From positions 57,102,001-57,166,000 of the forward strand of contig OX597819.1 in assembly GCA_951406725.2 (NCBI GenBank): a DNA stretch of 64,000 nucleotides, in the 5' to 3' direction. A program made the translations under genes and the position numbers. Shown in pieces: positions 4,128 through 63,110 of this stretch; the stretch's first letter is position 1, and each line of letters starts with the position of its first letter. The notes below the pieces were generated by a model. The model was not told the DNA's origin. It did no database searches and worked only from the letters and a program-made list of their open reading frames with translations. This stretch comes from Octopus vulgaris (taxonomy: Eukaryota).

Positions 4128-4380
4128 TCAGTTTTAACATCAACTCCTTCGAAATAGACACATTGTGCAGCAATACAGTGATCCTGGCATTCCTGCTACT
4201 TTTGTAATCCGTCCTGGAAGTCGTTTTCCATTACCAAGTCGAGGACCTTCTGCGAGTCGATCTGGATATCAACAATGACGTTAAAACGACAACCTTTGAG
4301 CTGAATTTTTCTCTTGGGGAAGAGATGGGTGTTCGCAGGCATTATGTCTGACGAATAAGGCAGGTGCGGAAGCGATACCG
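4128..4380 (-). mobile_element. mariner transposase C-terminal remnant
   Basis: Minus-strand translation HLPYSSDIMPANTHLFPKRKIQLKGCRFNVIVDIQIDSQKVLDLVMENDFQDGLQK*QECQDHCIAAQCVYFEG matches the mariner HPPYSPDLAP.D..LF...K..LKG.RF ... CI...G.YFE C-terminus. Confidence 0.85.
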
Positions 4381-4479
4381 TGTTTCAAATATTGTACGTT
4401 TCAAAACATGCAGTATCCACAAGAAAACGGACGATAGTAATTGCCGAAAACTCAAAATCTGCTTGGTAAGGAAGCTACA

Positions 4480-6718
4480 TTATTTCATACTAATTGGCTA
4501 TTCAAGCCTTACATTATAGTCTCCTAACCCCACTAATATCTTCGGTGTCCCGAGAAAGTTCCCTAGGCGCCGATAAAAATCAGCTTGAAATCCTCTAGTA
4601 CAAGGTGCATAGATACCGATCAACCTGAAGGTAATACTGCTGTGTGTCATATCAAGGACGACCAGCTCACCTGGGTCCACATAGACTGTACTTGTCTGAA
4701 GAGTCAAGCCTTTTCGCACCAGTACCACTACACCCCCTCGACCTCCGGTCTGGCAAGGAGACATGATTTTCTCATAGCCGTTTAATAGGGGTGAGAAGGT
4801 TTTAGAGTGTCCAACTTGGTCTCTGTATATCGTGTGACCTTAGATCGTCGAGGAAACAAGCTTGCTTCCACTTCGAGCTCAGACCACGCACATTCAAACA
4901 CCCAAGTTTAAGTGTAACCCATGAAATCAAGGCAGAAAACAAAGGTCCTAATTACCTTTAACTGGTGATGTCGGGGCTGACCTCACAACGCGTGATGTAG
5001 CCCCTTCCTTCCACTCCTTCAAATACTTGGGTAAATCCGGTATTTTCCTAATGGTCTTCGGATGTTTCTCCTTCAATTGCCCGAATAGGCTTTACCCCAT
5101 CCAGGCACACCTCTCGTTCAAGTCTTTATGCTGTGGTAACAGCTTGGTGGTGTGATGTTTCTCCATAATTTCTCGAATGTACTTATCTCAGGTGTCGAAT
5201 CTCACCAGAATGTTTTTTTCTTCTTTTCTGTCTCTTTTCCTTTCTGGAACATTAGGGTGGGGCCGTTTTTTTCATTATTGGTGGTGTAGTGCTTTCGAAA
5301 ATTTTCTTTTCTTTTTCTTTTGTAGGGGATATGGATGGGGAGGGCGCTAGTATTCTTTTTCGCACCATAGTATACTCGCCCTCGAGCACCTCCATGTTGT
5401 CTTCCGGGGCAGTTACACATTCAGGTACCGCTTTAAAGGGGGTGGGTGTGTTTGGTCTATCTCCCGTTGACCAAGAGTAGCCTATTACGAAGCACTTCTA
5501 TATCCTCCTGAGCTCCCTGAATAATGGCAGAAATGTTTTTCCCGATCCAGTTTTGGGGGGCAGAGCAGGCAATCTGCAGGAGGATATTTTACCCGTCCTG
5601 TTATACAACAGGGCTTGCATCACCTCCCTTGCGTCAATTTCAAGTGGCACCTCTGCCACCTTAACACGGGCTGTCCGTCTCCTCATGTAGATTGGTAGAA
5701 TCACCACCTCCTTCGTTTCGGGGTGGGGGTGGCTCACTGAGTACGCTTGGGCCCTTTTTTCCGTTGTAAATCTGGCCATAATCGTGCCATATGTCCAACC
5801 CCTTGCAACATATGTCGTGTCGTTCCATATTGGAGCCAGACGGTTTTATATTTTTCCTACTCAAAATGCTTGAATTTCTTGGTTTCCGGACAGTAAGTCT
5901 TAAAAACGCCTGTCCGTTTCCGCAAATCATCAACGTTGGAGGAGGGTGAAGTCTTAACCTCACCACCCTCCTCTTTCATTCTGCCGAACAGTTCTCCGAG
6001 ACTCTCTTTTGGCATTTCAATGATTTCAGTTGCCACCGCGGCAACTGCAGCGAACCTCTTCATTGGGTGTTCGTTGCTCTTTTCAATATGACGATCTTTT
6101 TACACAATTTCCTCCGACATACTCGGCTGGAATCGGTATTATATACGAAAAAATATATATATCTCCTCCAAACTGGAAACTATAATTCTCTTTTTTCTTT
6201 GTAAATATTTTTGTTGTAGATATTTTTCCTATAAAGTGGAGAACAGTTCAAATCTCGCCCTTGGCGGGGGTTGGGCGTGCTTATGATGCCTGCAACGGCT
6301 TAAACCACGTTCAATTTGTTTTTTTCACAGCAAAGTCAGCAAATTGCCAAAATGGCCTCACAAAAATTAAATATTATGCCTCCCGGCACCGGGAGGCAGC
6401 ACAGTTCAAAAAAAGTTCACTGTGTAATAGTAAATGGTCAACAGCAATTCAACGAATAACAATTCCAAGTCTGTTAACAGCTTCAACAGATATTTCAATA
6501 AATATTAAACAATTCTCACCAGCAAAAACGCGACTAACGGCAATTCCTGTCACCGGGAGACAGCACAAAAATGTTCAAAGTTCAATAATTCAATAATGTT
6601 CAACAATTCAACAATGTTCAACAACGATAACCAATTAATAAATCCGACGAAAAACAACCAAAGCTCCAAGAAATCGTCCGACTCACCGACAAGCAAAAAC
6701 ACGTCCAACAAAGAGACC
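4480..6718 (-). mobile_element. L1/Tx1-like derivative C: 5'UTR, decayed ORF1 (~6120-4950), N-terminal APE endonuclease (~4922-4510) fused to the element 3' end
   Basis: EN motifs LGCLNVRGL, TETKL, GGVVVLVRK, FRLIGIYAP, LGDYN; ORF1 fragments (RTGVFKTY; ARFTTEKRAQAYS...ILPIYMRRRTARVKV) homologous to ORF1 of element A; flanked by target motif copies at 4465-4479 and 6719-6733. Confidence 0.85.
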
Positions 6719-6733
6719 GGTAAGCAAGCTACT

Positions 6734-6975
6734 TTATTTCTTACATTGCCATAAAGGCAGAACAGAGATAATGTAGCTTTGCTGGCTGGACACAAACATT
6801 AATTAGATGAATGATAATGATACACTAATGATAAAGATGGGAGAAGCCAGAAACCGTCCGCCGAACCTTTGCTTCTCTATAACATTGTTCGAAAATCTCC
6901 AACTTAAGACGGCTTCACAAACGCTTCTTACAGCTTCAGTGTCAAACGCAACTCTGATTCGCACACGAGCAATGC
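6734..6975 (-). mobile_element. 5'-truncated Tx1-like 3' end (element B)
   Basis: 6734-6870 aligns by eye with the 3'UTR of element A (6991-7110: AGCTTTGC.GG.TGGACA...CCGCCGA); same GAAATAA terminus and hairpin. Confidence 0.75.
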
Positions 6976-6990
6976 GGAAAGCCAGCTACT

Positions 6991-9062
6991 TTATTTCATA
7001 AATTTGTCATATTGACAGTACAAAGAGCTTTGCAGGATGGACAAACACATGAATGAATGAAAATGAATTATAATGAATAAATGAGAGACGAAACCCAACA
7101 CCCGCCGATTGGATATTTCTCGAAAAGATATTTTCTTTTTTTTTTTAAATCAATATAAGGTTTCGAACCTTTTACAAGGAGGAGGCACTAAAACCTCTTA
7201 CTTAACATATTTTCTTTTTTCTTTCTTAAAAAAACACAAAATTGAAGTTATAAACCACTACAAAATAGTCCAATAAGCTGAGGTTTCAAACTCTGTAACG
7301 AGGGTCTTTCACCTCCTACTCTCCGATATATCCATCGATATATTCATCATCATCTTCAATGCCGCTTGAGTTCCTGTATCCCGCCATTTCCCATGCCTTA
7401 CTCATGTAGGACATGTAAGTCGTGTAAGAGCCACCCGGTCATATGCGACAGTCCTCCCCAAATCCTTTAAGCCTTTCCCACAAGGGAAACCTTATGACCT
7501 GCACAGCTATCTGCGGAGGCCATTCGGGATCCCGTGTGAAGGGCATATCTACTGTTTCTTTAAGTTCTTCTACTATTTTATTTTTTCCACCTCCCCGCCC
7601 TTGTAGAAAAAGATAATTAATTGATCATCTTTAAGGGTGGGGGTGGTTTCTTCCACCGTGGGTGGCACATCTTCGGGACATGCAGTCGGCACATCATCTC
7701 CCTGCTGAGATGACCCGTTCTTCTTTTTTTTTCTTTTCTCCCTGGCTTCGGGAGAGTGGAGCCCTTCCGCTTCGTCCGGAGACTCTCCCCCGCCTCCCGA
7801 AGCCTTAGGTTTCTTCGGCGGGCAACTATTGTTGCCCGCCTTCTTTTTTTTTTTAATCCTTTTTGAGTTGAGGAGGCTGAAGCCTCCTCGACCACATCCA
7901 CCTCTCCCTTTGACCGGGTAGGGGAGGTGGCATCTGGTGACTGTTCCAGGGCCTTACCATGGTCCTGGGGGCAGTTCCTTTTAATGTGGCCTGGCTGCAG
8001 GTACGAGTGACACTTTGGGGGACGTCCCTCAAGTATCACCGGATACCTGCAGCCAGCCATTTTCAAGAAATCTGGAAAAACCAGTTCTATTGCGGCCGAT
8101 GGGGTCCACAGTGTCAAAATCGCTTTTGACCCTTGCCAATCGACCGCCGGAAATACTCTTATATTTAAGAGCCTGGGCCCGCCATCTCCCAGTCCCCGTC
8201 GATGGTATCTTCAATCCAGTCTGCTTCAGTGCCCAGGGGAAGCCCACATATTCAGGTTCGTATTAATTTTCTTCCACAATATGACGGGAGAAACAGGATA
8301 TCCTTGCCTTCTAAAGGCTGACTCGCAAACCGGCGAGCCTTTTCCCCGTTGTCAAACAGCAACCGTACGGTTGCATGTTTGACTCCACGGGATATGTATT
8401 TTACAGAGGACAAATGTTCTTTAAGTTCATTTTTTGTGACTTGTTTTGGGAAGACGGTGATGGAATTAAGAACTTTAGAATATGTTCTAAGTACCATCGT
8501 CTTCTCTTCCATATCTTTTAACCATTGCTTAGGCGGGTTAATTTCCCACTCTAAGACAGAGTTTTTCTTTTTAAGTTCCTTCTCTGCCATGTCAAAAAGC
8601 AGTTCAAAAGTAGTTCAAAAGACAGTCTGCCAAAAAATTAAACCGAATAAAAATAAAACAAAATAAAGTGAGGGTAGAAAACTGAAATTAAAGTAATGAA
8701 AATAATGAACCAAAAATCTTTAGAAAGAAAGAAATAATAGAAGAAGGGAAAAGTAAAAGAAAAATCTCACAAATAGCACAGACAGGGAATCCTTTGTATA
8801 ATACTCCAAAAAGTTAATCCAAAAAGGTAATCCAAATGGCTTATTCTTATTTTTGTTTTGGTGAGATACGCCCACTAGAATTCACAAGAAGAATTTTCAA
8901 AAAAATTCTCAATTCACCGTTACGATGCTGAGAACCCAGTATTTTGCTCGTTATAGCGAGCCATAATAGACAATTTTTCTTTTAGTTCTTTTTTTCTGTT
9001 CGCGGGGCCGAAACTCACATCTTCTCACTGTAACAGTCCAGACCAACTAGTGTTGCATTCTG
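6991..9062 (-). mobile_element. ORF1-only (HAL1-like) Tx1-type non-autonomous retrotransposon (element A)
   Basis: Interrupted ORF1 8590 to ~7320 (MAEKELKK...KYISRGVKHATVRLLFDN...; EGRPPKCHSYLQPGHIKRNCP, a degenerate CCHC knuckle; basic tract) followed directly by 3'UTR, no ORF2; target motif copies at 6976-6990 and 9063-9077. Confidence 0.8.
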
Positions 9063-9101
9063 GGTAAGCCAGCTACTTACCACACAGCTACTCCTGTGCC
9101 C
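9063..9101 (-). mobile_element. Severed 5' head of a family-2 SINE (target of the Tx1-like array)
   Basis: GGTAAGCCAGCTACTTACCACACAGCTACTCCTGTGCCC is near-identical to 10896-10934 of the intact SINE. Confidence 0.85.
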
Positions 9102-9625: not shown

Positions 9626-10489
9626 TGAATCGGAGTATGTGAATATATCTGTTTTAGTGTATGTAACTGTAAACTCGAAATATGTTTCTCCATCGAATCG
9701 ATCACTTAATTCAAAAGATTTATGATAAAATTGATCGATTAATCTTAATGCTATACTATCGAGGATGTATATTTGTGTCCCTCGAGTGATGTGTATGCCA
9801 CTGGATTTCTTTTCCTGGTTAATTTGGAAATTACTCCGTCTTGTAAGCAGGGAGCCAAATATGTCTGCAAAGAAATGCTATTAAATATTCAAATAAAAGT
9901 ATATGACATCTTCAAAGGTATCTGTGGCAGTAAATCACTGTTTTAAATTTCAATGATCACTATATTGGATGAAAATATATTACCATTTCATCTGTATTGA
10001 TTCAAAAGGTTTTTCCCTTTTCTGAGATTCTTTGAAATTCCAATTATAGTTTAAATGTTCTACCAAACCAAGAATTTTGCATCTATCCTTATCATATGAA
10101 ATCACCATCTAAAAGTTCAGTTTCTTGTCTAATGAGGTTTTGATTCTTGCAAATTTCAGATAATTCTGTGTAGGAAATTCAAACATTATTGTACTTGAAG
10201 TTTTCTGTCTGAGAGAACTGTATGAATGCCTAAATAGCTAAAATATACGCAAATATGTTGGCCAGGATGTTATGCAAACGCATATCTGGATCTCGAAAGT
10301 TTCTGATAAATTAGCCAATACTTTTACGATGTGAGATCTTTTATTTTACAAGTTTGTTAAATCGATAAACTTATTACCAAACTTGGATATTACCAAATAT
10401 TCAAAGATCTTTATTAGTGCAAGCTGTTTTAGATATAATTTTGTATTTCTGAAGAACTAGTCATTTTCATTTTTGTATTCTTTTATTCC

Positions 10490-10934
<445 letters not shown>

Positions 10935-10947
10935 AATCACTTTTTTG

Positions 10948-11336
10948 GCATAGCTGTGTAGTATGATATTTGCATCTCAAACATATGCTTCCAGGTTCAG
11001 TTCCAATGTTTAGTAACAGTGACAAGTGTCCTTCTAATCAAAACCACGAGCGGACCAAAGTCTTGTGAGGGGATTTCGTAGATGGAAACCGAAAAAAACC
11101 TGACGTATATGTGTGTGTCTTTGTGTTTGAATTTTACCTCTGCCACTACTGACAACCGGTGTTAGTGGGTTTAAGTTCATGTACCTTAGCAATTTAGAAA
11201 AGAGACCGATAGAATAAGTACCGGGCTTTATATAGATATAAATACCGGGGTGTGAGGATCGTTCTACTAAAATTCTTCAAGAGGGTGCCTACAACATGGC
11301 TGCAGTCTAATGCCAGAGACAAGTCGTAGTAAAAGA
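10948..11336 (+). mobile_element. Older, diverged family-2 SINE, head-to-head with the previous copy
   Basis: GGCATAGCTGTGTAGTA head, CCAGGTTCAGTTCC, GATGGAAACCG, GAGACCGATAGAATAAGTAC, CATGGCTGCAGTC. Confidence 0.8.
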
Positions 11337-19502: not shown

Positions 19503-20663
19503 TTGGGTTGTCCAGAACTTCATGCCAGTTTTCAGTCGTTCATATTCAAACACGTCTAATTCTCGACACATATTATGGTTACATTTCCGGTTACCACACA
19601 TTTCAAACTATCAGTTGAGAAAGAAAGTGTAAAATTACTTAATTCGTGTCAATTTTGCATCCCTATGAAAATGGAATATTATGAGGTGCATTTTAGACAC
19701 TTGATGGTTTCTAATTAACGTAAAGGCAAAAATCCCTCGCAAGGAACAAACAAGATATGTGCTGTGTACGGTGAACGCGTTTTAGCTGACATAACTGTAC
19801 GTAAGTGGTTCGCTAGAGTTGATGATTGTAGCCTTATTGATGAAGAACGCTCAGGCAGATCCCCACCCCTCTTCCGATGACGACCAAATAAAGACATAGA
19901 TTGAGAATAACCCACATTACACAACCCGGGAATTGGCAGAAACACTAAAGTTATCAAAATCCACCATCGAAGTGAAGTTTGAGTACGCAAATCGCTACGA
20001 TGATTGGGTACCACATGTTGTGAACGAAAAGAATATTTTGGATCGCATTTTTATCTGTAATTTGTGGTATAAGCACAATGAAAATGTACCCTTTTTGAAG
20101 GAAATTATCTTAATCCTAAGAATGTCATATTCTGTATCTGATAGGGTTGGAAAGGAATCCTGTACTATGAGTTTCTGCCAAGTAACCGGTCAATACATTC
20201 TGAGGAGTACTGCTCGCACCTAGACGATTTAAATGTAGTAATTCAAGAAAGATGCCCAGAATTGGCGAAGAAGAAAGTTGTTGTCTTTCCGTCAGGTTAA
20301 TGCCAGACCTAACATTTTTTAAAATTATTTTGGTGACCCGTCAAAAATTGTTTCAGCTTGGCTGCGAGGTGTTACCCCATTCACTATACTCCCTAGACAT
20401 TGCTCCTTCGGATTTTCATTTATTTAGGTCCTTGCAAAATAATCTCAATGGTAAAAAATTAAATTCTTTGAAGAACATAAAGAAAACAACCTTAATGTGT
20501 TCTTTGCCAAGAAACTACCGAAATTCAGGGAAGAAGACAGAATCTTTAAGTTGAAGGAAAGATGGAGAATGGTTTATATTTAGTTGAATAAATATTTAAT
20601 GGTATAATTTTGTTTTGTCTTAATTTCCCTCACGAATTGGCATGAACTTTCCGGACAACCCAA
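19503..20663 (+). mobile_element. Near full-length defective mariner transposon
   Basis: TIRs TTGGGTTGTCCAGAACTTCATGCCAGTT (19503-19530) / AATTGGCATGAACTTTCCGGACAACCCAA (20635-20663) followed by TA; transposase pieces ICAVYGE..TVRKWFAR..DEERSGR, WVPH, WKGILYYEFL, EVLPHSLYSLDIAPSDFHLFRSLQN; stops, frameshifts and an internal deletion. Confidence 0.93.
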
Positions 20664-22949: not shown

Positions 22950-23127
22950 TGGTTTCAAATTTTGCCACAAGGATAGCATTTTATGGGAGGGTATTAAGTG
23001 GAATACATCGACCCCAGTGTTTCACTGATACATAATTCATCGACCCCGAAATGAGGAAAGGTAAAGTCAACCTCGACGGTAATTGAACTCAGAAAATAGC
23101 GACGGGCGAAATACTACAAAGCATTTC
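22950..23127 (-). mobile_element. Family-1 SINE, 5' head cut by a Gypsy LTR
   Basis: ATCGACCCC...AAAGTCAACCTCGACGGTAATTGAACTCAGAA...GCGAAATAC homologous to 1446-1676 and 29739-29944. Confidence 0.8.
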
Positions 23128-29738: not shown

Positions 29739-29944
29739 TCTATCTATTACAGGCACAAAGCCTGCAATTTTGGGGAGGGCGATAGTAGATTACATCGATT
29801 CCAGTGTTCAACTGGTACTTAATTTATTGACTCCGAAAGGATGAAAAGTAAAGTCGACCTCGGTGGAATTTGAACTCACAACGTAGCGACGAGCGAAATA
29901 TCGCTAAGCATTTCGTCCTAGCAATTCTACCCGCTCGCTTCCTT
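29739..29944 (-). mobile_element. Family-1 SINE with 18-bp target-site duplication
   Basis: TSD CACTAGGGAAATAATAAC (29721-29738) / CACTAGCGAAATAATAAC (29945-29962); B-box GAGTTCAAATTCC on the minus strand. Confidence 0.9.
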
Positions 29945-31475: not shown

Positions 31476-31522
<47 letters not shown>

Positions 31523-31549
31523 GATAGATAGATACATTTATTCCGTTAT

Positions 31550-31684
31550 TCTGTTATTTCGTTCACTCATTTGACTGCGGCTATGGTGGAGCACCACCTT
31601 TAGACGAAAAATCGACCACAGAACTTATTCTTCAGAAACCTAGTACGTATTCTATCGGACTCTTTTGTCGAGCCGCTAAGTTAC
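31550..31684 (-). mobile_element. Family-2 SINE 3' fragment
   Basis: CATTTGACTGCGGCTATGGTGGAGCACCACC...CCTAGTACGTATTCTATCGG homologous to 10505-10600. Confidence 0.8.
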
Positions 31685-33719: not shown

Positions 33720-34025
33720 ACATTTTAGTATGAGTATTTACCGCTTTGTAAGAAACTTGCGGTTGATTCTTGACGGTGCGCTTTGTCCTTGAGTAAGACA
33801 CATTATTTCTCGTTACTGCCGTCCACTCACCTGACAATAATGAGTTGCACCTATAATTCAGAATAGCCAGCATTGTCACATTCTGTGTCACAATGAATCT
33901 CCCTCAGAACTACATTCATCGTATTCATGGTTCTCTCAGCCACTTGCACGTTAATATCAGGTGCAAGCAATTCCGTTGGTCGTATCACGTGGCACTCTCG
34001 TTCTCGTAACCGAAGGAGGACCAGG
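33720..34025 (+). mobile_element. tRNA-derived SINE (family 3), decayed
   Basis: GTCCTTGAGTAAGACACATTATTTCTCGTTACTGCCGTCCACTCACCTG core homologous to the reverse complement of 43448-43500; distinct 3' body. Confidence 0.7.
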
Positions 34026-34039
34026 CCATTTGCTACATG

Positions 34040-34343
34040 TTCCTCATGGTGGTAGTGCCAGTGATTGTTTGCGATGGTTATGACTACGATAGATATGGCT
34101 GCGATATTGGTGATGATGCATGTGAATCTCATGGTTGCACCACTGCTGCTCCTGCTGGTGGGGGGGGTGATGCTAGTTGTGGATGTGGTCTTGATTCGGG
34201 TGCGTGCAGTCGAGATGATGATGTTTTTGACCATGGTGATGATGATGGTGATGCAGATACGGTGATGATGCCGATGATGATTACAACTATATTGATAATG
34301 ATGATCATGATGATGATGATGATGCAGACGATGATGCTGCTTC

Positions 34344-34384
<41 letters not shown>

Positions 34385-34630
34385 AAGATGAGGATTATGA
34401 CGCTGATGATGAAGTTGATAAGGATTCTCATGATGATGATGATGAAGATTATGACGCTGATGATGAAGACGATAAGGATGCTTATGATAATGACGATGAC
34501 GACGACGAGAACGACGATGACTACAACGATAAAAACGACGATTAAGATGATAATAGGGATACTGACGATGATTATGACGATGTCCATGACCGGTGGTGTG
34601 ATCAGATAAGCATGATGACGACGAAGATGT
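34040..34630. repeat. Degenerate trinucleotide tract (GAT/GAC/GCT/GGT)n
   Basis: Directly visible; source of the His/Met-rich pseudo-ORFs. Confidence 0.9.
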
Positions 34631-34754
34631 TATAAATATATTTCGTTTAAACAAATATCTTCGACTACCTTTCGAAGTATGCAACGAACGGTATAATGAG
34701 GAATGTAAATCTATGTAGAAGCGTATGGATGGGTGCGTATGTGTGTATGTGTGT

Positions 34755-34817
<63 letters not shown>

Positions 34818-35157
34818 TGTGTAATACGTATGAGCTTATGCATAACTACTAACGAAAGTGTAAGTAATTTCAAGCTATGTGGGTTTGTGTGTATGATAAT
34901 ACGATATCTCTTCATGTAAAACTATATAAATGTGAATGTTCTCAGAATTATCTGTCAATTTATATTTGCTGACGTGTATGTGCATGCATATAAACATTAT
35001 ATATTATGAAATAGTGGTAATTAGTAGGCTTTGAAAACAAATAGGAATTGATTCGATGCCGCACGAAATGAAAGTGGTTTAATTAACGAAATACATAAAA
35101 GACAGATGATGACTATCACGTATATATCCATATGTTAACAGATGTTTTATCACTACA

Positions 35158-40006: not shown

Positions 40007-40163
40007 AGGAGTGGGTGTGTGGTCAGTAGCTTGCTTACCAACCATATGGTTCCAGGTTGCGGCACCTTGGACAAGTGTCTTCTACTATAGCTTCGGGTCG
40101 ACCAAAACCTTGTGAGTGGATTTGGTAGGCGGAAACTGTAAGAAGCCCGTCGTATATATGTAT

Positions 40164-40199
<36 letters not shown>

Positions 40200-40447
40200 T
40201 TATATATATGTATGTATGTACTTATATGTTTGTACGTCTGTGTTCGTCTCCCCAACATCGCTTGACAACCGATGCTGGTGTGTTTACGTCCCCGTAACAT
40301 AGCCGTTCGGCAAAAGACTGATAGAATAAGTACTAGGTTACAAAGAATATATCCTGGGGTCGATTTTCTCGGCTAAAAGGCGGTGCTCTAGCATGGCCAC
40401 AGTCAAATGACTAAAACAAGTAAAAGAGTAAAAGAACGAGTAAAGAG
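40007..40447 (+). mobile_element. Near full-length family-2 SINE with an empty target motif (40025-40039)
   Basis: AGGAGTGGGTGTGTGGTCAGTAGCTTGCTTACCAACCATATGGTTCCAGGTT...; tail (GTAAAAGA)n; homologous to 10490-10934. Confidence 0.9.
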
Positions 40448-40695: not shown

Positions 40696-40925
40696 GGAGG
40701 CGCAATGGCCCAGTGGTTAGGGCAGCGGACTAACGGTAGGAGGATCGCAGTTTCGATTCCCAGACCGGGCGTTGTGTGTATTTATTCAGCGAAAACACCT
40801 ACGTTCTACGTTCTGAGTTCAAATTCCGCTGAGATAGATTTTACTTTTCATCCTTTCGAGATCGATACCACTGAAACACCGGGGTCGATTACATCGATTA
40901 CTTGTGCCTTTAGTAAAAATGATTA
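40696..40925 (+). mobile_element. Chimeric SINE: distinct tRNA head joined to a family-1 body
   Basis: A-box TGGCCCAGTGG, B-box GTTTCGATTCC, then CTACGTTCTGAGTTCAAATTCCGC...TTTCATCCTTTCG as in 1506-1560. Confidence 0.75.
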
Positions 40926-46214: not shown

Positions 46215-47540
46215 CTTGGTTTGCAAGGTAAGAAGAAATAAGAAAGGCTTCTTTTTTTCTGCAAGTTTAAAATGAGATATGCTGGCATAATTTCGTTACA
46301 TCTATCCTCCATAATCGACAGAAATACCCGAAGTAAAATGTCTCGACCTAGTCGAGCTATATCTAAGGAATGCCCGATGGCAGTCTTTCGATATAACTCG
46401 ACAAAATCAAAACACTGCACTTCGGGTATTTCCGTGGAAGCAAATAATATTTCGATTCTGTTTTCTGCTTGGAAAGTTGCGGATTGTATATACACAGAAG
46501 AAACAGGTAAGAACAAATATACAAGGCTTTTCTTCAAGTTTAGAATGTGACATTGCTGGCATAATTTCCTTATATCTATACTCCACAACCCACGGAAAGA
46601 AATTGTCGAGCTATATCGAAGGATTGCTCGATTGCATTCTTTCGATATAACTCGACAAAATATAAACACTTCACTTCAGATATTTCCGTTGAAGAAAATA
46701 ACAACTCGATTTTGCTTTCTGCTTGGAAGTTTGCAGATTTTATTTACACACGTTAAACAGGTAAGAACAAATATGCAAGGCTTTTGTCTTGAAGATTAAA
46801 ATGAGAGATTGCTGGCATAATTTCGTTATATCTATACTCTAAAACCCACGGTAGTAACTTGTCGAGCTATATCGAAGGAATTACCGATGGCATTTTTTCG
46901 ATATAACTCGACAAAATCAAAGCATTTCACTTCGGGTACTTCCGTGGAAGCAAATGATAATTCGATTCTGTTTTCTGCTTGGAAATTTTCGGATATTACA
47001 TACACACATGATACAGGTAAGAACAAATATGCAAGGCTTTTTTCCTTCAAGTTTAAAACGAGACATTGCTGGCATAATTTCGTTTCATCTATACTCCACA
47101 ACCCACGGAAATACCCGAAGTGAAATACCTCGACCTTGTCGAGCTATATCGAAGGAATGCACTTAGGCATTCTTTCGATAATTACAAGTAATTACTTATA
47201 ATTATATCTATATTCCACAACCCATGGAAATACTCGAAGTGAAATGTCTCGACCTCGTCGAGCTATATCGAAGGAATGCCCGATGGGATTCTTTCGATAT
47301 AACTCGACAAAATCAAAACATTTCACTTCGAGTATTTCCGTGGAAGCAAATGACAATTCGATTCTGTTTTCTGCTTGGAAATTTGCGGATTTTACATACA
47401 CACATGAAACATGTAAAAACAAATATGCAAGACTTTCTTACTTCAAGTTTAAAATCAGACAGTGCTGGCATAATTCGTTATATCTATACTCCACAACACA
47501 TGGAATTACCCGAAGTGAAATGTCTCGACCTTGTGGAGCA
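46215..47540. repeat. Tandem array, ~275-bp unit, ~5 copies, each with a long internal palindrome
   Basis: Marker GCTGGCATAATT at 46281, 46555, 46811, 47068 and 47464; inverted arms visible in each unit. Confidence 0.92.
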
Positions 47541-59147: not shown

Positions 59148-59806
59148 CTTGTATAGTAAGTGAATGTCGCATGTTGGCACAGAAAGAATACAATAAAAGA
59201 CATGACAATCTAGGGAGAGCAATCCGCTGGGAGCTTTGTGGAGATGTAGGATTTGAACATACTGATAAATGGTACGAGCATGATCTGAACCTACTAAAGT
59301 ACTAGAAAGTAAGCAGAACAAGATGTTGTAGGACTTTAACAGTCAGATTGACAGAGTAATAGAAGCTAGAAGGCCTGATTTGGTACTAGCAAATAAAGAG
59401 AATAAAAAGTGCCAGATCACTGACTTTACAGTCTCAGAGGATGAACAAGTAAATATGAGAAGTATAGAAAAATAACAAAAATACGAGGACCTAGCTATTG
59501 AGCTACAGAGACTATGGGAAGTGCGGGTAGAATGTATCCCAGTAGTTGTAGGTGTATTGAGAACAATACCAAAAGATCTGAACAGATGGATAGAGGAAAT
59601 AGGCCTAATACCCAGTTTAGTATAGCTGCAAAAAACAGTGTTATTGGGGACAGCTATGATGCTTAGAAGGGTTCTTGGCATCTAAGGTTAGTTGCTATGA
59701 CCCAATAGGAGGGTTCTTGTACCCCGATGACCCAATAGGAGGCTACTTGTACCCCGATGTTAGGATTCTCTTCTTTTACAACAGTCTCATGTGCTGAGTG
59801 TATATG
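59148..59806 (+). mobile_element. 5'-truncated R4/Dong-like retrotransposon (RLE endonuclease domain and 3'UTR) between (TAA)n tracts
   Basis: IVSECRMLAQKEYNKRHDNLGRAIRWELC...WYEH; ARRPDLVL....CQITDF...EK*QKYEDLAIELQRLW....IPVVVGVL...LQKTVLLGTAMMLRRVL; 30-bp tandem duplication at ~59698-59757. Confidence 0.92.
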
Positions 59807-59827
59807 AATAATAATAATGATAAAAAT

Positions 59828-62125
59828 CGTTTACTTATTGGCCACAAGGGCCGAACACAAAACAAAATGGGACGATACAATAGAAGGGACAAGTGGGGTG
59901 TTGAACAATGGTGTGTATATAATAAGTAACAAAAAACACTTAAACAATAATAATAATTTCCCCAAATGGGACGTTCCTCACAGGGATAACCGAAGAAGCC
60001 CACACTTTATGGTTATTTCGACACCCAGATGCACCTCAGCAGGTGCCCATCCCCTTCTCAAATCCTCTGGTTTACAAATGAAAGTTCACAGTAGTTCAAT
60101 TCAGACGAACCATCTTCGCCCTATGCATTCACATTTCAACGAATTTACTAGTGTCAGGACTTCCTCTCCACTCTCACTTTCCTTTTCAAATGGAAATTGA
60201 AAACCTCGATGACGGCTTGCCCTAAAAGGCAAGTATCTCTCTTCAGTCCATTCAGTCTCGTCCACTTCACTACATCCTTCGCCATAGCCACCAGACAGAG
60301 GAAAACTGCCTTTCCTTCCCGGCTAAACGAAGGCGGCGGAGCGATGTTCACGCTGGACTCGGTTCCTAACTGGATGTGTCCCGCACTTGACAATAGCTGT
60401 TCGACAAACTTCCACAAGTCAGTAATGCGCAAAGACTGAGCGAGTGCATGCAGGAAAGTTTCATCGCCCTGTGCACACCTCGGGCGGGACCTTCTGACAA
60501 AAATTTCGTGTCCTGTACAGCTTATCTCGAACCGGCAGTGCCAACGACCCCCACTCCACCCCTGGTAGCACTGCCAGGTCAGGGATTTCTGGAAGTTATC
60601 CATATGCCCCGACCCGAAAGTCCTCCGGAAAAGACCAGTTAATTGATTTCTCCGACGCCCAGAGTTTTACCGGGGGCATCTTTCCTTCCACTAATCCCCT
60701 ATAAAACTATATAGTTGAACTTCCATCGACTGTGTTGCCAGACTGGCAGGAAGCTGTGAGCGCTTGGAGACACTCCAGATGCCAAGCGCCCTTTCTTGGT
60801 TTAAGTTTGATTCAGAAGTGTAGCTCCGTCATTGAGGCGAGTTGCGGAAAATCCTGTGCAACAAACGGCGATCACTGGAGATGTTGCCGTCTCTGCGGGC
60901 CTGTGTATCATTAGCCACGGCATATGCAACCCTCCAAGCAGTGATTGTTGACAACTGAAGGACTGCATGACGAACAGAATCAATAGGTCCCTTCCATAGA
61001 TAAACGGAAGTGCAAGCCTTAGATCTTGATCTGTCACGGAGCGAGCAGAGCAAGGGAAAACGGTCAGGTGATAGTAGATGACGGAAGTGATATACACATT
61101 CGCCACCTCCGCCCCACCTTCAGGGACAGATTTCTCTCTGCTCATTTCTTAGTGAGATTGACTACACTGCTCGTTACCTCCTCCCAGTTCTTGTCCACCT
61201 GGAGGTTCGGACCAAACCAGAGCCCAGGCAATTTAACCGGTCCTTCCGTCCAACGCCCTACAACGCTGTCGGTTAGCATAGTCCTGCTTCTCCAGGAGCT
61301 GAGCTGCAAGCCACCGACTAATTTTTGTTCATGTCATCTCTTCATAATCCCTTAAGATAGTGCCGATCACCACGATTTCCGAGCTGTCCGACGCTATTAC
61401 AGTGACGTCCGCATGTGCTGACATGAACCTTCCGCATCCTAGATGACGGTGGATGCCCTTCGAAATATCCAACTTCTTTAGTAATGGCTCAAGAGCCAGC
61501 ACGTACAGAATGGGTGAGAGGGTGTATCCCTGACGGATGAAACGAGCGATACTAAACGATTCCGATAGGTGGCCGTTTAATTTATTTGACTGCCGAACAG
61601 ATATCGCTGTACGTTGCAGCAATCCAGCCTCTGAAAACGGGTCTGAAACCGGCCGCCTCGAGGAGAACCTCCAAGTGTTGATGCTCGACTCTGTCGAAAG
61701 CTTTCGATTGATCCAAGATGATCAGGGCCCCACTTACGCCAGATTCCTTCCCTACTCTCACTATGGTGTAACAAGTGAGGTGGAAGTTCGTGGATAGATC
61801 TTTTCGGGATAGAGCATGTCTGCGTGTTACCGATCAGCTTATCGACAAGCGCAACTTCTTGGCTGACACCTTGACCAAAGTGTTATAATCTTCATTCAGC
61901 AGAGTTATGGGCCGCAAATTATCTAATTAGTCCCCCTTGTTCGAGTACTTTCACAGCAGCACCATCATGCTACGTCTCACAGCACTGGGTATTCTTCTGT
62001 TCTGCTACCAGCTGCGGTAGACGTCCGCCAAGAAATATTTTAACAAGTTTGGCATATGAAGATAAAGCTCGAGGGCAGACCATCCGGCCTCGGAGACTTA
62101 TTTGACCTCACTGGAACGTAGTTTG
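59828..62125 (-). mobile_element. 5'-truncated L1/Tx1-clade LINE (ORF2 RT to C-terminal zinc finger, plus 3'UTR)
   Basis: KSPRPDGLP, LRPITLLNEDY, LDQSKAFDRVEH, IRQGYTLSPILYVLALEPLL, SAHADVTV, PRCAQGDETFLHAL; multiple stops and frameshifts. Confidence 0.93.
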
Positions 62126-62879
62126 ATGTTTGTGTGATTGCTTTTTGCTGTTTGGAGTGTTTTCTTTTGGTCAGTTTCTGGTCAGTTGTAGTGTTGGTGG
62201 TGCAGTTTGTGATAGCGGTGCTGGAGGGGTTGGTGATGCTGTAGGTGTGTCTGTGGCAGTTGTGGTTGTATCTTGTGTGCTGCTTGATGCGTGTATTGAT
62301 GTAGGACAATGTATATTTGTGATTCGTTTTCATTTGGGGGGGGCTTCATTTTCGCTTCTGGTGTTTCTGTTACTGGTGTTGTTGGTATTGTTCATGTGGC
62401 TGATGTTGCTGAGGTTACTGGTGATGTTGCTGTGGGGCTGGTGTTGCTGCTGTGACTCATGTCTTCTTATTCCTCTTATTCTTCTTATTCTTCTTCTCCT
62501 TCTTTTTCTTTTCTTCTTCTACTTTTCTTCTTCTTCTTCTTCCAATTAGGACTCACGCCATTAGCCACAAAGAATAATCTCTAATTCGAGCCTACACTAA
62601 GCTGCTAAGAATGCGTGTGGCAACTTGAAGATCCATCCACCACACGCGATAGACTGGCGGTGGCACGGTCCCAAAAGCTAATTCTTATCCTCATTCAGTA
62701 AACGGTGGCTTTTAACGGGTGGAGAGCTAAACCATCCTGGGGTACAGATGATTCGCAATCTAGACTAGGGTCTGAAAGTTTACCACACCATAGTGGGTTA
62801 CAACAAGCTTCATCTGTGGAAGAAGTAGGGCGGAAGAGTGAGAGAAGTTGTGGGGAAAGAATACAGCGGGGTTCAGCTT

Positions 62880-63045
62880 GACAATAGATGCTGGGGTGTC
62901 ACCGCGACTTAGTGGTTCGGCAAAAAACCCAATAGAATAAGTATTACGCTTTCAAAGAATAAGTCCTAGGGTCGACTTCTTCGACTAAAGGTGGTACTCC
63001 AACATGCCCGCTTTCAAATGACTGAAACAATTAAAAGAGTAAAAG

Positions 63046-63048
<3 letters not shown>
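62880..63048 (+). mobile_element. Family-2 SINE 3' fragment
   Basis: GGTTCGGCAAAA...AATAGAATAAGTA...AAAGAATAAGTCCTAGGGTCGAC...ATGACTGAAACAATTAAAAGAGTAAAAG. Confidence 0.8.

Positions 63049-63110
<62 letters not shown>

Follow-up and report, generated by a model that had tools for sequence, protein, structure and literature searches.

Does a retrotransposon of the L1/Tx1 type in the octopus carry, close to the 3' end of its RNA, a small folded signal by which its own machinery picks out the template? The question is raised by 64,000 nucleotides (nt) of Octopus vulgaris DNA (NCBI GenBank assembly GCA_951406725.2, contig OX597819.1, positions 57,102,001 to 57,166,000), a stretch that we call the window, made of AT- and microsatellite-rich animal DNA, in which four elements, here named A, B, C and D, and their hairpins all lie on the minus strand. 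Three of them, A, B and C, are head-to-tail L1/Tx1-type insertions within the head of one short interspersed nuclear element (SINE), delimited by four copies (t1 to t4) of a single 16-nt target duplication, and the best explanation is that A, B and C form a SINE-targeting L1/Tx1-type group, to which D, inserted at another site, is related. By analogy with the so-called stringent long interspersed nuclear elements (LINEs), we think it probable that the protein of the second open reading frame (ORF2p) recognises its RNA template by this hairpin and the conserved letters beside it, which would together act as a cis signal.

Form and position of the hairpins

The four hairpins that an initial annotation had listed were all found, on the minus strand, as exact 13-mers: TGTC-AATAT-GACA in A (7005 to 7017), TGCC-TTTAT-GGCA in B (6747 to 6759), GGCT-TGAAT-AGCC in C (4496 to 4508) and GGCC-CTTGT-GGCC in D (59840 to 59852). 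Every one has, as claimed, a perfect Watson-Crick stem of 4 base pairs (bp) and a 5-nt loop, although the loop of A can close a fifth A-U pair, in which case RNAfold gives 5 bp and a 3-nt loop. It is the structure that is conserved, whereas the letters differ among the elements. The hairpins of A, B and C lie 13, 12 and 15 nt before t2, t3 and t4, respectively, that of C at a deletion junction, and there is no poly(A), the 12–15 nt from the stem to the target duplication ending in GAAATA in all three. After the A-rich terminus of the initial annotation comes, in A, B and C, the 16-nt SINE target duplication, which had gone unmentioned; the further statement that each stem is followed by AA fails for B, where AT follows, unless the last base of the stem is counted. 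In a gap-free alignment of 21 columns, TGT stands two bases before the stem, the second pair is an invariant G-C, the last base of the loop is T, and A follows the stem; in every element the order at the end is TGT-NN, the 4-bp stem around its 5-nt loop, and then a short tail rich in A.

These had been described as all the Tx1-like ends, which held within the window: tblastn with 139 proteins returned only the ORF1 of A, the endonuclease of C, the ORF2 of D and one weak match at 1464–1655, and a covariance model detected no fifth end, the training ends scoring 25.9–27.4 bits and the next hit 15.1 bits at E 0.86. No SINE tail with the hairpin was detected in the window by the same model; the defective elements A and C do carry it.

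Stacked insertions at one SINE site

In the sense direction, the locus reads SINE head (9100–9063), A, 16-mer, B, 16-mer, C, 16-mer, a degraded continuation of the SINE, and a mariner relic. The head is the 5' half of the host SINE (9063–9100), identical at 35 of 38 nt to an intact SINE at 10896–10933, and ends in t1 (9063–9078). Both t2 (6976–6991) and t4 (4465–4480) have two mismatches to the SINE 16-mer, the agreement of t4 having a chance of 2.6e-7 per position, and t3 (6719–6734) is identical to the intact SINE at 10896–10911. With up to three mismatches, the 16-nt word occurs six times in the window against 0.45 expected, a number reached by none of 100 shuffles: at the four junctions of the array (9063, 6976, 6719 and 4465) and in the intact SINEs at 10896 and 40024. 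The first 8 nt after t4 match both intact SINEs at six positions, compared with one to three after t1, t2 and t3, and 4440–4464 was taken as the degraded 3' continuation of the host SINE, a weak assignment whose anchored alignment with the two intact SINEs was equalled by 54 and 163 of 3000 shuffles.

A T-to-G substitution at position 9 of the 16-mer is found in t1 and t2, on either side of A, and is absent from t3, t4 and both intact SINEs; because it is private to these two copies, A was the last to insert, into the most upstream copy of the target. In the simplest history, B and C would already have been in place when the upstream copy mutated, and A would then have inserted there and duplicated it, which argues for a true duplication by staggered cuts. 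Since the ORF1 of C is only distantly related to the protein P0139 and gives no direct alignment with the ORF1 of A, at least two well-separated subfamilies used the same SINE site.

All three elements of the array are bounded by the same 16-mer, at this one locus, with D at a different site, and we have little doubt that A, B and C are separate site-specific insertions. A tandem duplication, or one event with template jumps, would account for the homology and adjacency of A and B, but it would have to accommodate a difference between A and B at 28% of sites, unrelated sequences after each of t1 to t4, ORF1s of A and C that cannot be aligned, boundaries that are identical at every junction (give or take leading As that possibly belong to the tail), and the change common to t1 and t2 that t3 lacks, and we regard it as extremely unlikely.

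As for the host, the two SINE copies in the window that retain the head both have an uninterrupted 16-mer, and further copies, pieces or relatives of this family, with a central microsatellite, lie at 10480–10935 (minus strand), 40007–40436 (plus), 10990–11100 (plus), 31476–31684 and 62876–63106. We take the SINE head to be of tRNA origin and likely a CORE-SINE of the OR2 type, neither of which was detected by Rfam or ARAGORN: the former at its gathering threshold and the latter found nothing in the window, and Rfam at loose E-values matched no tRNA to the SINE head and gave no believable hit at the element ends. The bases just after t4 (4457–4478, minus strand) differ from both intact SINEs and are presumably nearer to the anticodon arm of tRNA-Gly; the ancestral target might have been a tRNA gene or an older SINE subfamily. 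The one site at hand suggests that upstream SINE sequence matters for target recognition. A duplication flanking the host SINE itself was looked for and not found, the longest shared word being 7 nt, and bacterial and archaeal genomes scanned for the SINE and for the end of D yielded zero loci each. Relics of mariner-type transposases, with matches to SETMAR and Mos1 at E 3e-4 to 4e-3, are found at 4142–4405 (minus) and 20372–20482 (plus), and the remainder of the host SINE may have been lost to the first of them, which lies some 60 nt past t4.

What the elements contain

Element A (6992–9062, 2071 nt) consists of a 5' untranslated region (UTR), a frameshifted ORF1 with its ATG at 8590, and a 3' UTR, with no ORF2. 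Over 8572–7741, its ORF1 is 48–64% identical to Octopus sinensis LOC115225585 and matches P0139 across two frameshifts; a zf-CCHC match in A (E 0.015) and another in P0139 (E 0.058) both fall below the Pfam cut-off. A tblastn comparison with 31 proteins gave no ORF2 match in A, and because it has no ORF2, A needed ORF2p in trans. With ORF1 present, ORF2 absent and a 3' end of the parent type, A is, as a single copy, HAL1-like. Within its ORF1, a 9-bp G+C-rich inverted repeat beside an A-run (7826–7845) gave spurious Rfam matches of the bacterial terminator kind.

Element B (6735–6975) is a 5'-truncated 3' end of 241 nt, homologous to the 3' UTR of A with a local alignment score of 84, the maximum in 300 shuffles being 39, and with 102 of 142 ungapped columns identical (72%). 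The four ends had been counted as separate cases, but given this homology the independent lineages number about three. For the five remaining pairings of 3' regions among A, B, C and D, the alignment is no better than with shuffles (98–292 of 300).

Element C (4481–6718) has a 5' UTR, a diverged ORF1 (32% identity to P0139 over 56 amino acids, E 1e-6) and the first part of the ORF2 endonuclease (4891–4513), to which about 30 nt of 3' end are fused. The endonuclease is 74% identical to Octopus bimaculoides LOC106873154 and its homology ends at GDYN, and C tracks the protein P0002 up to GDYN at 4513, with minimum differences of 15 in 153 nt before that point and 17 in 33 after it (p 3e-7). The hairpin starts 5 nt past the GDYN end, where the endonuclease homology gives out, so that of the 3' end C retains no more than about 30 nt, namely the hairpin and 15 nt. 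That the hairpin of C is plain endonuclease coding sequence was rejected, the 17 differences in 33 being close to the random mean of 18.3. A resumption of the endonuclease after t4, where an F..LL..F.LVD-like reading occurs near the expected spacing, was also considered and dropped, being equalled by 87 and 70 of 600 shuffles and scoring 19–20 against 65 for the upstream control; the degraded SINE fits slightly better there.

Classification of the elements

Neither A nor B carries an ORF2, and none of A, B and C carries a reverse transcriptase (RT). The nearest named proteins are octopus ones, from O. bimaculoides for the endonuclease piece of C (74%) and from O. sinensis for the ORF1 of A (64%). 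The 74%-identical relative of C matches Exo_endo_phos, with the human L1 endonuclease as its best PDB match (E 8.5e-8). The best long match of C, and of D too, is P0018, which itself hits L1 ORF2p at E 2e-73 as against 3e-25 for R2, and for P0018 and P0002 human L1 ORF2p is the best match among solved structures; longer relatives of P0002 came to one match at 29%. Atlas look-alikes of the ORF1 fall in zf-CCHC and ZCCHC3-type RNA-binding clusters (scores 0.89–0.93, TM <0.5). A Type I ORF1, that is, RRM with a CCHC knuckle, marks the Tx1 clade (PMC5203782), and the zinc-knuckle matches and the look-alikes agree with it, though not firmly. Judged by homology, then, the elements are of the L1/Tx1 type, as initially annotated, and Tx1 is likely as opposed to another L1 subgroup, on the grounds of the type of ORF1 and of the target behaviour.

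Covariation, chance and folding

The tests of chance and covariation assume homology of the ends and follow a post hoc search, with four ends in one window. Hairpins of 4 bp and 5 nt start at 598 of 109,112 unmasked positions (0.55%), 189 of them with at least two G-C pairs. When 35-mers were drawn at random, a common loop length was seen for all four once in 200,000 draws and for three at a rate of 0.0003. There are also 598 AATAA sites in the window, 46 of which have such a hairpin ending 0–14 nt upstream, 10 with at least two G-C pairs, counts that include the four element ends. In the gap-free alignment, all 16 stem cells pair and three of the four pairs show a both-sided change, a covariation score reached by 6 of 500 shuffles, although related sequences can beat shuffles without any structure; slid controls pair at 12.5–56%, and the consensus of RNAalifold consists of the same four pairs. 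The initial annotation had called four ends out of four suggestive, and the loop-length draws, the covariation and a simulation on a tree all make chance an unlikely source.

In that simulation, whose premises are that the ends are homologous and that their ancestor had the hairpin, six substitutions fell at random on a tree with four tips, and every stem stayed paired in 217 and 748 of 2,000,000 runs. The figure bears on the possibility that the hairpin is an unselected relic brought forward by ascertainment, an ancestral inverted repeat kept by descent whose copy in C is partly an accident of the deletion junction. Drift would be expected to break pairs, all stems surviving in 1–4 of 10,000 simulations, and even with C left out, A, B and D differ from one another by both-sided changes at pairs 1 and 3. 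For such a relic speak the four ends with A and B related, the folding described next, and the possibly mixed origin of the 5' arm of C; on balance we find it quite unlikely.

Several observations weigh against a recognised structure. None of the ends folds better than its shuffles (z from -0.61 to -1.32 in 51 nt and from -1.79 to +0.14 in 121 nt), and the isolated stems are weak, at -3.0 to -6.6 kcal/mol. The hairpin of A, the youngest insertion, has a pair probability of 0.81–0.95 with 25 nt of upstream sequence and of 0.01 or less with 60 or 150 nt, being out-competed in four of six contexts, whereas over the same six contexts B reaches 0.50–1.0, C 0.72–0.99 and D 0.95–1.0. The loops differ at most positions, whereas in ZfL2 it is in the loop that specificity lies. 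Codons 134–137 of C, the first four past GDYN, differ from P0002 at 5 of 12 nt (p 0.004) and from the pattern of P0018, a more distant homologue, at only 4 of 12 (p 0.024), and endonuclease codons, joined on through microhomology, may make up part of the 5' arm of the C hairpin; the deletion in C may also date from the insertion itself or from a later time, in which case it would be uninformative on the minimal signal. Moreover, there are only four ends, with about three independent both-sided changes among them, and the hairpin was found by looking for one.

The both-sided changes could also be mechanical, if reverse transcription began with copying by fold-back or template switch that made the inverted repeat perfect again, with no selection on RNA structure. 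The repeat does lie 12–15 nt from where reverse transcription starts, the deletion junction of C coincides with the hairpin, and in B the tail and target recur once more in inverted form. A fixed stem length, a fixed loop length and fixed flanking letters across diverged elements would, however, be unexpected from such random events, and this origin strikes us as very improbable.

A proposed signal for template recognition

Recognition of the hairpin by ORF2p is favoured because A, with no ORF2, needed ORF2p in trans and because C keeps only the hairpin and 15 nt. It is favoured also by the both-sided change, at pair 3, that separates the alignable homologues A and B; by the fixed position of the hairpin, 12–15 nt before the duplication; and by its being common to A and C despite ORF1s that cannot be aligned and 3' regions that share nothing else significant.

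In L1/Tx1 retrotransposition, the bottom strand is nicked, synthesis is primed on the A-rich end of the RNA, and a second cut follows, here 16 nt away. At this SINE, the apurinic/apyrimidinic-type endonuclease (APE) would nick the bottom strand at the 16-mer's left edge, and the freed, T-ended primer would pair with the A-rich RNA end. ORF2p would bind the hairpin and its flanks just upstream of the priming end, selecting and positioning the template as in stringent LINEs. A cut of the top strand 16 nt away would then produce the duplication and rebuild the site, so that copies can stack, and defective RNAs such as that of A, and perhaps that of C, would stay mobile in trans by keeping the hairpin. 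An L1 nick consensus and sequence-specific nicking by the Tx1L endonuclease are on record (PMC1950540), and in ZfL2 the deletion or disruption of the stem-loop abolishes retrotransposition, the stem-loop being bound by ORF2p (PMC4176376).

A hairpin under selection might, however, serve the making of the RNA 3' end, by cleavage, termination or protection against read-through, instead of the choice of template by ORF2p. In all four ends it stands directly before an AATAA-type sequence with no poly(A) tract, and arrayed elements must be cut out of read-through RNA; covariation cannot separate the two roles and the position fits both equally well, a further point against recognition. But since the AATAA motif closes A, B and C, there is no downstream spacer for a cleavage signal of the established kind, and the LINE 3' stem-loops that have been tested bind ORF2p (PMC4176376). 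End formation as the selected function is thus, to us, unlikely.

Whether this lineage is one of stringent LINEs can be asked from the sequence. It would behave like one, by a 3' stem-loop with compensatory changes (in four sequences only), a likeness that falls short of establishing class membership: a stem of 8–10 bp with a bulge was not found, the consensus having 4 pairs and a lower stem being predicted in B and D and not in the 51-nt folds of A and C.

A target-complementary segment in B

A lead of another kind comes from a segment of B (6764–6783, minus strand) that is complementary, at 14 of 16 positions, to the element's own tail and the target 16-mer. Its duplex with the target has -13.3 kcal/mol, reached by 83 of 5000 control 16-mers, and when 16 nt of read-through are added, B forms a long stem beneath the small hairpin (z -3.27, 1 of 200 shuffles). 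The segment was found post hoc and in one element; elsewhere, target complementarity was not significant, being partial in A and absent in C and D, with 975 (A), 1640 (C) and 4320 (D) of 5000 controls doing as well. The stretch might either help to open or check the site through the top strand of the target, or pair with the duplicated target in read-through RNA. On these lines one could imagine a Tx1-type lineage specialised on the SINE head that uses its RNA 3' end twice, with a 13-nt handle for ORF2p and an upstream target-complementary stretch, that is, RNA-assisted targeting by a LINE of the APE type, which we hold to be a very long shot. In our estimate there is roughly an even chance that the lineage is specific for the SINE and has the hairpin as a minimal signal, with its RNA not pairing to the target.

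Element D and other repeats in the window

Element D (59826–62111, minus strand) is a separate, decayed ORF2 of the L1/Tx1 type, from the RT (RVT_1, E 8e-6) to the C-terminus, with a 3' UTR, and does not lie in a SINE. Its ORF2 homology spans 62111–60151. The 16-mer has no match at D, and neither a target duplication nor a 5' end could be assigned by comparison. D lies tail-to-tail with an element of opposite orientation, a C-terminal LINE relic at 59182–59830 (plus strand), and its end directly adjoins the (TAA)n tail of that relic. This relic has long trinucleotide repeats before it, an RPDLV..D motif, a weak Pfam match to L_protein_N (E 0.0016) and a 31-nt direct repeat in its 3' UTR at about 59699–59760, and we take it to resemble a LINE of the restriction-endonuclease type. 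At the other side, low-complexity sequence (62111–62860, minus) is joined directly to the RT of D and is not similar to the 3' UTRs compared; its part at 62540–62860 proved unrelated to those of A, B and D.

A tandem array at 46226–47539 has at least three copies of a unit of about 256–280 nt with internal inverted repeats, and a second SINE-like family is present in several copies (1474–1611, 22976–23127, 29764–29918 and 40806–40899). The longest open frame of the window (33851–34921, minus, 356 amino acids) was rejected as a gene, being low-complexity microsatellite sequence.

Comparison with known systems and significance

Many Tx1 families are target-specific, some of them for other transposons, including DNA transposons and LTR elements, with Tx1L inserting into Tx1D and with Keno, Kibi, Koshi and the crocodilian Tx1-Mar and Tx1-9_AMi as further target-specific families (PMC4494074); Dewa, Keno and Mutsu have been described, as has the DNA transposon Dada inserted in tandem with its target in between (PMC3706591), and tRNA genes and other mobile elements are among the targets of non-LTR elements generally (PMC8869645). 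The elements described here resemble the target-specific LINEs of the Tx1 clade in their L1-type APE endonuclease and RT, in an ORF1 with a probable CCHC knuckle and RRM-like look-alikes, and in a fixed site in a multicopy sequence. Unlike those, whose named targets are DNA transposons, LTR elements, small nuclear RNA, 5S, a tRNA spacer, satellites and microsatellites, they have a SINE head as their target, and for those LINEs no 3' hairpin is described in the excerpts concerned (PMC4494074, PMC3706591).

Stem-loops at the 3' end have been described in L2, in R1 and in plant, algal and human L1 (PMC3472496, PMC3747384, PMC5135761). UnaL2 and ZfL2-1/ZfL2-2 of the L2 clade and SART1 of the R1 clade share with our elements a small hairpin immediately ahead of the 3' terminus, its upper stem about 4 bp long and its loop 5 nt (PMC4176376, PMC5135761), and the stem consensus described for L1 in comparison with stringent LINEs has 8–10 bp with a bulge 4–6 bp from the loop (PMC5135761). 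UnaL2, ZfL2 and SART1 belong, however, to other clades, and in the octopus ends there is no consistent bulged lower stem, the loop is variable, recognition would be by analogy, and A, B and C have no terminal tandem repeat. Closer in clade is the monocot L1 lineage with its maize partners ZmSINE2/3, in which an L1 3' hairpin has a variable, compensating stem and conserved flanks (PMC3472496, PMC3747384), the compensatory changes being noted for a plant L1 lineage in PMC3472496; unlike the present case, it is from plants, conserves about 45–50 nt and shares them with partner SINEs, whereas here the host is an animal, about 20 nt are conserved and no partner SINE tail was identified. ORF1-only derivatives are known for L1 (PMC5786205), and A agrees with these HAL1-type LINEs in having a 5' UTR, an ORF1 and a 3' end with no ORF2, and differs in being seen as one copy, with a probably Tx1-type ORF1 and a specific target.

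In the octopus, L1-Tx1 families are reported without target analysis in the excerpts of PMC13282606 and PMC8967140, and SINEs make up about 11.6% of the DNA of O. vulgaris (PMC13282606). Our literature search, which did not extend to Repbase and drew on excerpts, came upon neither a 3' hairpin in a Tx1 element nor a Tx1 element that targets a SINE, which is weak evidence of absence. The plant and algal cases are the ground of the argument over whether stringent recognition is ancestral in the L1 clade and poly(A) recognition in mammals a later relaxation (PMC3472496, PMC3747384).

A precise 16-bp target together with a compact RNA handle is the kind of system that is sought for site-specific gene insertion. 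If the recognition proposed here is true, the covarying hairpin would place an animal lineage of the Tx1 type beside the cases from plants and algae, and offer for mutation an unusually small element of about 20 nt. With a LINE for which a SINE serves as safe harbour, the list of Tx1 targets would grow in a way that fits SINE-rich genomes.

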